Below are positions 234 to 3,033 of a stretch of 64,000 bases of DNA, one piece after another. The notes under the pieces were generated by a model, which ran no database searches, was not told where the DNA came from, and saw only the letters and a list, made by a program, of their open reading frames with translations. This DNA is from Vampirovibrionaceae bacterium NZW_1234 (GTDB lineage: Bacteria; Cyanobacteriota; Vampirovibrionia; Vampirovibrionales; JAGQHJ01): NCBI GenBank assembly GCA_041697335.1, contig JBGUGD010000035.1:159151-223150 (forward strand), read 5' to 3'. How positions within the stretch are numbered: position 1 is the stretch's first letter; each line of letters begins with the position of its first letter. The position numbers and the translations under genes are program-made.

Positions 234-264
234 CAAAAAAGGCCCTCGAAAGGGCCTTTTTTTG
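234..264 (-). terminator. Intrinsic terminator after flagellin 1 (potentially bidirectional)
   Basis: AAAAAA-GGCCCT-CGAA-AGGGCC-TTTTTTT, 26 nt past the flagellin stop; A and T tracts on both sides. Confidence 0.9.
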
Positions 265-289: not shown

Positions 290-1132
290 TTATCCAATTA
301 ATTTCAAGGCCAGGCCAGGGGCTTGGTTGGCCTGCGCTAAAATGCTAGCAGATGCTTGTTGTAGAATCTGATTCCGAGACAGGTCTGCAGATTCTCTGGC
401 CACGTCCACATTGCGAATGCGGGATTCGGAAGAGCTGAAGTTTTCAGACGTGACTTGCAAGTTGCTAATCGTACTGAGGAACCGGTTTTGGAAAGAACCG
501 ATAGTCGATCTACGACTAGAAACAGCACTTAGCGCAGTATCCACTGTAGCCAGGAAGGCTAAGGCACTTGAGTTACTGATAACGGCACCAGCTGATGCAA
601 TAACGCCAAGGGTAGTTGCTGTAGCATCACCCAATGCACCAGAAATATCTACGGTGTCCAGGGATTGTACAGCATTCGCTCCCACTTGAATTCTCAAGCT
701 TGCGGGGGTGCTGGAAGATAACAGCCTGATTCCGTTAAATTCGGTTGATGCTGCAATCCGGTTAATGTCAGCCAAACGGGCATCAATTTCCTGCTTAATT
801 GCAGTCCGTTGGTTTGTACCGTTCGTGTCGTTTGCCGCTTGAACCGTGAGTTCCCGAATCCGTTGGAGGTTATCGTTAATAACACTCAAACTTCCTTCAG
901 CTACTGACAATAAGTTCACCCCATCTTGAGCATTGCTAACAGCTTGGTTAATCCCTCGGATCTGGGTGCGTAAATTTTCAGAAATTTGCAAACCAGCAGC
1001 ATCGTCCGACGCTTTATTAATCCGAAAACCAGAAGCCAAACGTTCCAAATTTTTCTGTAAAGCTTCGGTATTAGACGCTAAAGCACGTTGAGCATTAATA
1101 GATGCCGTATTAGTATTGACGACAAGTGCCAT
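290..1132 (-). CDS. fliC: Flagellin (short, 280 aa)
   Basis: N-terminal MALVVNTN..LERLASGFRINKASDDAAGLQI; C-terminal SRIRNVDVA..QILQQA..LAQANQ; AAGGAG RBS. Confidence 0.97.
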   Translation of the reverse strand: MALVVNTNTASINAQRALASNTEALQKNLERLASGFRINKASDDAAGLQISENLRTQIRGINQAVSNAQDGVNLLSVAEGSLSVINDNLQRIRELTVQAANDTNGTNQRTAIKQEIDARLADINRIAASTEFNGIRLLSSSTPASLRIQVGANAVQSLDTVDISGALGDATATTLGVIASAGAVISNSSALAFLATVDTALSAVSSRRSTIGSFQNRFLSTISNLQVTSENFSSSESRIRNVDVARESADLSRNQILQQASASILAQANQAPGLALKLIG

Positions 1133-1288
1133 AAATTGACTCCTTCTTTATGTTCACTTTCCTTCCAAAGAAAGTGTTATTTCCTTCCTGTTTTACTATT
1201 AGCTCCCATCTGACGTTGGGAGAAATCGATTTAGGGTAAATGATTTAGGTAGTTATGTGATATGGATCAGCTCCTTTCTTGGGCTTTT

Positions 1289-1316
1289 TTATCGTGAGTA
1301 ACCGGACTTCTCATGA
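1289..1316 (-). promoter_or_regulatory. Putative sigma-28 (FliA-type) promoter of flagellin 1
   Basis: Minus strand TCATG-N15-CACGATAA; same spacing as the element upstream of flagellin 2. Confidence 0.45.
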
Positions 1317-1449
1317 ACCGGGGGGAGGGAGATAGAGTTCCCAAACCATTTCCTGCCTTCCGAAGGGCCACGCATATAGCTCTAATACTGTGCTAAGCAA
1401 ATGCAAGGATTCAGCAGCAGCTCATGGTTAACCACGGCAAGTATTCAAT

Positions 1450-1930
1450 TGTTTTCCCCAAGCCGAGCAAAAACACCCGCCTGGGGCTGTCTGTTGCGCT
1501 TCCCAAGCCCGTCAACCTGATACATCAATCAAGTTGAGCGCATGTAGAAGCCCAAGATACGGTATATACATGCCGAATGTGTCATACCACTGCCACTCTA
1601 AAGTTGTTTGCCAAGAGTGGGGTAGTAAATACCCTAGGGCAGGTAACATCGGTCTCTTGAGATCGAGAAGAGAGAATACGGGTATCAACCGGCACTCTGC
1701 ATGCTCGACAACAGACGAGAGCTATTCAATTGACACAGGCTAATTCACCTGACAGAGGTGTCTCCCAAGGATCAATTCAGATCCCAGACCTGTGGTGGTT
1801 CATGCGAAGACAGGTTCGGTCCTCACACGGGTCTGATTCAGAGGAGGTTTAATCTGGATGCGTATTGAATCAGGCCCACACGAGGGGGGAGGATTGGGCT
1901 TGCCAACGATTCTCGTTGACAAGCCCAAGG
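1450..1930 (-). ncRNA. Candidate large structured non-coding RNA of unknown family
   Basis: More than 10 nested or adjacent helices and no credible ORF; most G-U-compatible pairs favour the minus strand (see findings). Confidence 0.55.
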
Positions 1931-1934
1931 AGCC

Positions 1935-2804
1935 TTACTGCAAGAGTCTTAAAACAGCTTGCGGTGTCTGGTTGGCTTGAGATAAGACACTAATAGAAGC
2001 CTGCTGTAGGATTTGATTCCGAGTCAGCATGGCGTTTTCCGAGGCAATGTCTAAATCTCGAATACGGGATTCCGATGACGTAAAGTTTTCGATACCAAGC
2101 GTAATGTTCTGAATGGTACTATCCAACTGGTTTTGGAATGCCCCAATTAAGGCTCTTCGAGAGGATACTGCCGCCAAGGCAACATCAACATCGTTTAGGA
2201 ATTTTCGGGCCACAGTACCGGTTGAAAACAAGATACTCGCCGTGGTTGTAAAGCCAGAAGACGTAGTAGCTCCTAAAAGGCCTAATGCCGTTGCTGCCGC
2301 ATTGGCCAACGCATTAGCAATATCCAAGGTATCTGTCGATAAGCCGGAATCAGACCCAATTTGCAGACGAGCATTGGTCGTTGATCCCGTCAGCAATGAA
2401 ATGCCATTAAAACTGGTAGACTGAACAATGCGATCATTGTCTTCTAAGCGAGCTTTGATTTCACTTTCAATGGCTGCCCGCTGATCTCGGTTATTGGTTG
2501 CGTTTGCAGCTTGAACTGTCAATTCCCGAATCCGCTGAAAGTTTTCGTTAATAACACTCAAACTTCCTTCAGCAATCTGTAAGATACTGATCCCATCTTG
2601 AGAATTCTGAAGTGCTGTTTTCAAACCACGAATTTTACTTCTGAGTTGTTCAGAAATGGTCAAGCCAGCAGCATCATCAGACGCTTTATTGATTCGAAAA
2701 CCGGATGATAAGCGTTCCAACGATCGATTTAAGTTAATGTTATTGACGGACAAATTGCGCTGAGCAATAAGCGACGCCATATTTGAATTCACAACTAAAG
2801 GCAT
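1935..2804 (-). CDS. fliC: Flagellin, second paralog
   Basis: MPLVVNSN..LERLSSGFRINKASDDAAGL; SRIRDLDIA..QILQQAS; AGGAG RBS supports the start at 2804 rather than 2858. Confidence 0.96.
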   Translation of the reverse strand: MPLVVNSNMASLIAQRNLSVNNINLNRSLERLSSGFRINKASDDAAGLTISEQLRSKIRGLKTALQNSQDGISILQIAEGSLSVINENFQRIRELTVQAANATNNRDQRAAIESEIKARLEDNDRIVQSTSFNGISLLTGSTTNARLQIGSDSGLSTDTLDIANALANAAATALGLLGATTSSGFTTTASILFSTGTVARKFLNDVDVALAAVSSRRALIGAFQNQLDSTIQNITLGIENFTSSESRIRDLDIASENAMLTRNQILQQASISVLSQANQTPQAVLRLLQ

Positions 2805-3005
2805 ACGCGTGTTCTCCTTAACTCGCTTTGCTACTTCCATGTAGCCCACAGCAATCATTGCTATGGGAGCTATTGAATTGAAAAATTTAAACGGATATTA
2901 CAAACGAACTCTTGTTCCCTGTTATTTCCTTCTATGACTCCTGTTTTCCAAATTCTCCTTCCTGTTTTCCTGTTCCAATACGTGTATTTTTTTCTCTTAT
3001 CCGGG

Positions 3006-3033
3006 TCTTCGGATAAGGGTTACCGATTCTTGA
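3006..3033 (-). promoter_or_regulatory. Putative sigma-28 promoter of flagellin 2
   Basis: Minus strand TCAAG-N15-TCCGAAGA. Confidence 0.4.

Follow-up and report, generated by a model that had tools for sequence, protein, structure and literature searches.

A conserved flagellin-linked core with two mutually exclusive pairings in Vampirovibrionaceae, predicted to be a two-state RNA element

A core of about 90 nt, lying between two flagellin genes on the minus strand (about 1797-1885), is, on comparative sequence evidence, a conserved and strand-specific element in which one strand, b, has two mutually exclusive pairings, and fold models predict that it is a two-state switch. The core is part of a real element at 1450-1930 of the window, that is, of the whole 64,000-nt stretch analysed (G000:C26:159151-223150, G000 being the label of the source genome). 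This element would act like an intercistronic regulatory RNA yet fits no described family, and its combination of a conserved strand-exchange core with a large hypervariable fold is unusual. The parts of the core, read 5' to 3', are:

1875-1885, minus strand: core strand a, pyrimidine-rich; pairs with b and extends P1 (consensus fold)
1833-1873, minus strand: core helix P1 (1866-1873 with 1833-1840), 95% of cells paired
1841-1865, minus strand: variable P1 loop, 12-25 nt among the copies (core alignment)
1819-1831, minus strand: core strand b, the shared switch strand; pairs with a or c
1797-1816 (about), minus strand: core strand c; partner of b in hairpin P2, or of a distal strand d

Five copies of the core are present in four of the only five genomes that make up the family (G000-G004) and represent four genera: one each in G000, G002 and G004, and two in G003. 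The core always lies directly 3' of the orthologue of the upstream flagellin gene, fla2. Comparison of the syntenic gaps recovered it with BLAST E values of 6e-7 to 1e-4 among G000, G003 and G004, and the G002 copy was added by eye and with a profile; there the sequence 3' of the core ends at the contig end. The gap from fla2 to the next flagellin gene measures 752-1048 nt, and the flanks of the core show no detectable similarity between genera beyond the ribosome-binding region. Since the flanks have lost their similarity, the core is under selection. The four core-bearing flagellins form one clade (support 94/90, and 97 SH-like in a second tree), none of the other flagellins of the five family genomes carries the core, and neither a fla2 orthologue nor the core was found in G001 (87% complete). 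In G000 the element is single-copy.

Helix P1 is common to both folds. In one, b pairs with c as P2; in the other, a pairs with b and lengthens P1 to about 19 bp. Both are kept in all five copies, with 96.5% and 90.5% of cells paired as against 24-41% in slid controls. Hairpin P2 is paired in 44 of 45 cells (97.8%) and has two pairs with two-sided change, a:b forms 8-11 of 11 pairs in each of the five copies (fixed-register chance 0.0001-0.015 per copy), and P1 has one A-U/G-C compensatory pair in two of the five. Comparison of homologous inter-flagellin gaps, which the first-pass annotation had proposed as a check on its RNA, thus yielded five core copies and, for each fold, three pairs with two-sided change and a covariation score reached by few shuffles (4 and 2 of 500), although relatedness by itself can, as the tool cautions, give such scores in 5-25% of unstructured alignments, and the sample is one of five copies, two from one genome, with most pairs invariant. 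The RNAalifold consensus picks a:b unprompted. The two folds are 1.0-4.8 kcal/mol apart, b:c being the favoured fold in two copies and a:b in the other three, and the full-context split between folds at 37 C is 0.60/0.39 in G000, 0.87/0.13 in G004, and 0.20/0.80 and 1.0/0 in G003. On the minus strand the core has 17 G-U against 4 A-C cells (p 0.004 if cells are independent), a ratio that fixes the strand and favours RNA over DNA sites. Two copies have peculiarities of their own. The P1 loop of the second copy in G003:C166 (L054, about 2776-2796) contains a terminator-like hairpin with six U. In G002:C62 an 8-nt word after the fla2 stop (L034 2359-2420) is predicted to compete for the 5' strand of P1 (p 0.98), and a ribosome sitting on that stop could thereby influence the core.

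A plain BLAST search of 60 relatives with 1400-1960 yielded chance matches only, and scans based on flagellins in metagenome and genome contigs (80 loci each) gave no further core copy by profile in 227 loci. Two covariance models, R1 and R2, which match their five training copies by construction, found no new copy in 150 genomes of the class (one 24-bit match without P2), in 36 genomes of families f2 and f3 (one 23.5-bit match), in all 44 genomes of these two families or, with filters off, in 23 loci of related flagellins. Phage and plasmid searches gave no match to the element; 38 viral loci picked up with a 20-letter core pattern were attributed to chance, none exceeding 16 bits with R1. 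A 9-10-nt word common to the G000, G004 and G001 gaps is within chance, and leader peptides starting from an AUG at the end of strand c were rejected, as ORF length and sequence differ (read by eye). No publication on this RNA was found in the literature; the supplements of RNA-motif surveys may contain a matching unnamed motif.

The source DNA is present in hot-spring and microbial-mat sequencing runs. The nearest named flagellins belong to records labelled Vampirovibrionales and Melainabacteria, in keeping with a Vampirovibrionia lineage. A third flagellin gene sits just left of the window, and the genes and signals on either side of the gap are:

3006-3033, minus strand: inferred sigma-28-like promoter of fla2 (loose consensus scan)
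2807-2826, minus strand: hairpin whose loop carries the GGA of the Shine-Dalgarno sequence, putatively CsrA-site-like; motif also before orthologues in families f1 and f3
1935-2804, minus strand: upstream flagellin fla2, 289 aa (Pfam Flagellin_N and Flagellin_C; distinct orthologue clade)
1894-1928, minus strand: hairpin of 16 bp without U-tract, 3' of the fla2 stop codon (fold prediction)
1133-1200, minus strand: GGA-rich leader of fla1, with a hairpin at 1155-1176 (p 0.95) and the Shine-Dalgarno sequence at 1138-1145; 6 GGA in the last 120 nt
290-1132, minus strand: downstream flagellin fla1, 280 aa (ORF list and Pfam)
235-262, minus strand: intrinsic terminator-like hairpin 3' of fla1 (simple terminator scan)

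A sigma-28-like site lies 185-229 nt 5' of the start in all four core-bearing fla2 orthologues, according to a loose scan with the sigma-28 consensus. The same scan, which also misses several other flagellins, gave a weak site before fla1 in G000 (1289-1316) and none before the flagellin next after fla2 in G003 or G004. All four fla2 orthologues carry the Shine-Dalgarno sequence in the loop of a hairpin, and the sequence of this hairpin (2807-2826 in the window) is kept across the two families f1 and f3. At the place after the fla2 stop, fold prediction gives G004 a 15-bp hairpin of different sequence and G003 none; in the letters of sequencing run X10, read by eye, the stem of the 1894-1928 hairpin shows a two-sided change. 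A simple terminator scan of the minus strand found none in the fla2-fla1 gap and one after fla1. CsrA, FliW and RNase E/G are each present in all five family genomes, Rho is over the cut-off in none of the five, and FlbT was likewise found in none.

In the gap, said to lack a credible ORF, the first-pass annotation had described a highly structured, two-domain element of about 480 nt. Both properties were borne out: against dinucleotide shuffles, 1450-1930 has a minus-strand energy of -185.8 kcal/mol (z -6.01, equalled by none of 100 shuffles) and a plus-strand energy of -180.5 kcal/mol (z -5.60), and the gap has only two ORFs of 50 or more codons (58 and 69 aa), without Pfam match. With the first hairpin and the core removed, 1450-1794 still has a z of -4.3. 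A z of -6 was attained by one of 40 other ORF-free stretches of G000 (40 of 196 sampled, 8 shuffles each, fixed sd). Outside the gap, the ORF-free stretch G000:C3:21834-22436 folds with a z of about -6.7.

The helices drawn in that description fared unevenly. Six of seven named arm pairs are exact complements; the seventh, 1512-21/1528-37, has one mismatch, and this turns into G-U when the minus strand is read, as had been stated for several mismatches; the helix itself pairs with p 0.99. Roughly half of the nesting is probable in the minus-strand ensemble (p for the element alone/whole gap): 1512-21/1528-37 (0.99/0.99), 1593-99/1614-20 (0.98/0.98), 1489-96/1709-16 (0.44/0.94), the hairpin at 1768-1785 (0.97) and the two flanking hairpins at 1456-86 and 1894-1928 (0.92 and 0.98). 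The remainder is not, namely 1508-12/1678-82 and 1540-46/1567-73 (both 0), 1620-24/1630-34 (0.02-0.03) and 1785-90/1830-35 (0.19/0), and 1762-66/1887-91 forms in the isolated element (0.79) but not in the whole gap (0). A helix at 1834-40/1866-72 is also among the well-supported ones, at 0.78/0.97. The complementarity noted between 1548-57 and 1277-86 is exact over its 10 nt and is part of an 8-mer that occurs four times in the gap (0.08 expected). The four occurrences (1279-1286, 1548-1555, 1894-1901 and 1921-1928) alternate in orientation and could permit a second set of exchangeable helices in G000. As to the suggestion of a new large ncRNA or cis-element tied to flagellin expression, a structured RNA of flagellin sense, so tied and outside Rfam, is supported, but the 480-nt architecture is not conserved: homologues in other genera are confined to the core, within 'domain 2', and the syntenic spacers show no sequence similarity to 'domain 1'. 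The earlier account also overlooked the main feature, a core whose alternative pairings are conserved, as well as the long-range contacts that folding predicts with 1300-1319 and with the fla1 ribosome-binding site. The parts concerned, downstream of the core and just after the fla2 stop, are:

1927-1934, minus strand: 8 nt directly 3' of the fla2 stop, predicted partner of the fla1 Shine-Dalgarno sequence (p 0.91-0.95, strong only in G000)
1445-1796, minus strand: large variable folded domain (z -4.3), not alignable between genera
1647-1741, minus strand: stretch unusually conserved in run X10 (4 other letters in 95, 96%)
1294-1319, minus strand: distal strand d, the complement of c in the core (inverted repeat); overlaps the weak sigma-28-like site at 1289-1316

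A 10-nt direct repeat (1442-1451 and 1723-1732) flanks part of the variable domain. Folding of the first domain 3' of the core is stronger in sense than in antisense in G003 (z -4.3 vs -0.6) and G004 (z -6.9 vs -3.0); in the second unit (u2) of G003 and in domain 1 of G000 the antisense fold is equal or better. In the whole-gap fold of G000 at 37 C, c pairs with 1300-1319 (p 0.59-1.0) and this helix encloses most of the 1450-1930 element; at 55 C c:d is predicted to yield to b:c. The d-c duplex has an energy of -23.9 kcal/mol in G000 (shuffle mean -16.9, sd 2.5; best of 60 shuffles -24.7), and shuffle tests gave strand d significance in this genome alone, with none in G003 or G004. Judged from its sequence, strand d could instead be a sigma-28 promoter for fla1. 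The duplex of the post-stop nucleotides with the Shine-Dalgarno sequence reaches -12.9 kcal/mol in G000, which puts it at the extreme end of the distribution for 3918 post-stop 13-mers (printed fraction 0.0); it is weak in G003 (-6.6 kcal/mol, 9%) and at background in G004 (-3.8 kcal/mol, 52%). In run X10 a related organism, whose coding pieces are 82-90% identical, keeps all 26 letters of 1294-1319, and the conservation of 1647-1741 set against the 15% difference in seven coding pieces gives a binomial p of 0.0008, a value inflated by local-alignment trimming.

That the element lies outside known families, as had been suggested, agrees with the lack of any Rfam 15 match overlapping the gap at E up to 10; three homologous loci gave four weak matches far under the cut-off. 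The gap matches neither a profile of the tmRNAs of four relatives nor RF00023, and the genuine RNase P RNA (RF00010) and 6S RNA (RF00013) lie elsewhere, on contigs C9 and C20. G000 itself (94.75% complete) has no tmRNA by ARAGORN, Rfam or the relatives' profile and all four relatives have one; the absence is probably an assembly gap. Self-cleaving ribozymes and group I/II introns gave no Rfam match, and comparison by eye with their catalytic core motifs gave only partial words that the homologues do not keep. The many loop GGA motifs of a CsrB/RsmZ-type sponge were not found, nor were the multiple copies, terminal inverted repeats or phage or plasmid presence of a mobile element or MITE.

Several described systems share part of the design. 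Riboswitch and attenuator expression platforms have mutually exclusive helices that share one strand, are of near-equal energy and lie upstream of a gene. The core resembles them in its exclusive conserved helices (in five copies only), their one common strand, their near-equal energies and the gene downstream. However, it has no aptamer-like conserved loops and no terminator or Shine-Dalgarno sequence among the competing strands, the next start codon is 650-900 nt away, and no terminator or Shine-Dalgarno-sequestering platform conserved in the homologues was found. The gap is an intercistronic stem-loop region in a co-directional gene pair without a strong terminator, as are the stem-loops of selective RNA processing and stabilisation (SRPS), for example in the cip-cel operon of Clostridium cellulolyticum, where the passages of PMC4423207 on them describe structured intercistronic RNA in a polycistronic message. 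The likeness extends to genes for subunits of one complex, making a role in stoichiometry plausible; unlike those single short stem-loops, the element has a strand with two exclusive partners and a further 300-900 nt of fold, and processing is only proposed. Like FliX and FlgO of E. coli, as portrayed in the relevant parts of PMC11187230, it lies in the 3' part of a flagellar gene that depends on sigma-28, but it is much larger, lies between two flagellins, and has no sequence or Rfam match to them and no conserved terminator. It is a long, richly folded intergenic RNA nearer to its upstream gene, as are the raiA motif (described in part of PMC5737381) and OLE; these are conserved at full length across phyla, in contrast to the 90 nt conserved here in one family. 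The Min Jou interaction of MS2 plays a role in translational coupling. The G000 contact is like it in being a predicted short helix from a translated region to a distant initiation site that encloses nested folds, and unlike it, so far as the account in PMC12143590 goes, in being chromosomal, in starting after a stop codon and in being predicted in G000 only.

The reading that we favour, tentatively and with confidence somewhat short of even, is a cis-acting two-state element that lies in a read-through fla2-fla1 mRNA and adjusts the output of the downstream flagellin, with processing and stabilisation as the most likely means. Transcription would start at the sigma-28-like promoter before fla2 and continue through the gap. 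Read-through is to be expected because Rho is absent and the fla2 hairpin has no U-tract, and it may be partial because of the weak sigma-28-like site in G000 and the P1-loop hairpin with its six U in G003. During synthesis, a and the first strand of P1 would pair with the second strand and b as a hairpin of about 19 bp, and c would then compete for b by strand exchange. Were the RNA cut in the single-stranded P1 loop, the downstream RNA would keep b:c as its 5' hairpin; were it cut behind b, the fla2 message would retain a long 3' hairpin. Since b can cap only one side, the fold state would decide which message escapes decay. The relative stability of the two, with RNase E/G present, would set the flagellin ratio, the way simpler stem-loops act in SRPS operons (PMC4423207), and the variable domain would serve as a folded, decay-resistant spacer. 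In G000, strand d and the post-stop anti-Shine-Dalgarno nucleotides may in turn influence the fold state and the initiation of fla1. Candidate triggers are folding kinetics, a ribosome at the fla2 stop, temperature and the CsrA-FliW circuit. Against a switch of the classical kind, neither an intrinsic terminator nor a fixed anti-Shine-Dalgarno sequence is present 3' of the core in all genomes.

The RNA might instead be cut from the fla2 3' region and act in trans as a stable large ncRNA, as a base-pairing regulator like FliX or as a protein scaffold, with the core as a maturation or protein-binding module and the freed C-rich strand a as an anti-Shine-Dalgarno or anti-GGA seed. We regard this as possible if somewhat unlikely. 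It would account for the constant position directly 3' of fla2 and for the large sense-strand folds in all three complete gaps, the two tandem units in G003 fit a self-contained RNA, and the same slot in family f3 encodes a product that is likely to act in trans; 3'-UTR RNAs are known from flagellar mRNAs, on the evidence of the passages of PMC11187230 devoted to them. Yet a conserved 3' end or terminator was not found and the downstream domains have no common sequence between genera. GGA motifs, moreover, number 8 against 8.7 expected in G000 and 18 against 15.3 in G004, with a mild excess in G003 (10 against 5.7), which argues against a CsrB-type sponge. Long-distance translational coupling, in which the spacer fold joins the fla2 stop to the fla1 start, the 8 post-stop nucleotides hide the Shine-Dalgarno sequence and the terminating ribosome opens it, draws on predictions for G000: the Shine-Dalgarno sequence is unpaired at 3% in the free RNA and at 61% with a ribosome footprint on the stop, and against the genome background the post-stop duplex falls at the extreme tail. 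For coupling to span a gap, long-range pairing is required, as the pertinent section of PMC10666635 has it. The predicted opening is not seen in G003 (0.27 to 0.29) or G004 (0.33 to 0.25), the post-stop letters of X10, read by eye, weaken the pairing, and the conserved core is left unexplained; coupling is quite improbable as the explanation.

Readings in which the RNA has no role fare worse still. The folds could be those of a mobile or selfish relic without present function, such as a non-autonomous transposon or an intron remnant; a 10-nt direct repeat surrounds about 1452-1722, and the gap varies in length from 752 to 1048 nt. But the element is single-copy in its genome and has no phage, plasmid or Rfam intron match, no terminal inverted repeats lie within the direct repeat, whose two copies are predicted to pair with each other, and the core is kept at one orthologous site in four genera amid diverged flanks. 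This very improbable reading is, for the core, already largely refuted. Equally hard to credit is that a, b and c are three half-sites for DNA binding or recombination, in direct-inverted-direct order, and not RNA pairings. Strands a and c are indeed near-direct repeats with b as their inverse, and the motif is semi-palindromic, yet pairing is kept through G-U on one strand only (the 17 to 4 above), the a-b spacing varies by 13 nt and P1 has a compensatory change.

The slot behind fla2 is occupied differently in the sister family f3. Its fla2 orthologue (16 rows) is followed, in place of the core, by an ORF of 61-91 aa:

L300-L310, L313-L315, L317 and L151, directly after the fla2 orthologue (e.g. 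L307:2463-2711): mini-ORF loci of family f3

A profile of these mini-ORFs matches residues 222-267 of fla1 (E 2e-11 against that one protein, 2.6e-6 across the genome), and the mini-protein resembles the flagellin C-terminal helix; none of four tested has a Pfam match. A Glu-Asn pair is kept in 16 of 16, and its asparagine is presumably the FliW-binding asparagine of flagellin. FliW binding depends on a conserved flagellin asparagine, according to the passages of PMC12327847 that deal with it, and the mini-protein is a candidate FliW-binding flagellin mimic. Because a mini-protein of flagellin C-terminal type is found there, the slot may hold a regulatory module in f3 as well. The f1 gaps have no counterpart of the f3 mini-ORF or of the f3 leader of the next flagellin.

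The boldest form of the argument is that of a new large flagellar RNA class, in which the strand-exchange core drives a hypervariable fold of 300-900 nt and, as an either/or stabiliser or a released regulator, sets filament composition in predatory Vampirovibrionia; the RNA would stand in the slot where f3 keeps its flagellin-mimic mini-protein, two solutions to one CsrA-FliW step. Taken as a whole this is doubtful, and we hold it to be unlikely. How bacteria with more than one flagellin adjust the ratio is understood only in part, and conserved two-state RNAs that lack a known trigger are where new switch chemistry might be found. The core is small, at 90 nt, and offers natural variants from four genera. 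Together with the mini-protein of the neighbouring family, it points to post-transcriptional control of motility in a non-photosynthetic sister lineage of cyanobacteria. The f3 loci also carry, 3' of the mini-ORF terminator, a conserved leader of 300-500 nt with a sigma-28-like promoter, repeated CAGGG/CAGGA and a conserved hairpin, which by its sequence looks like a multi-site CsrA target.
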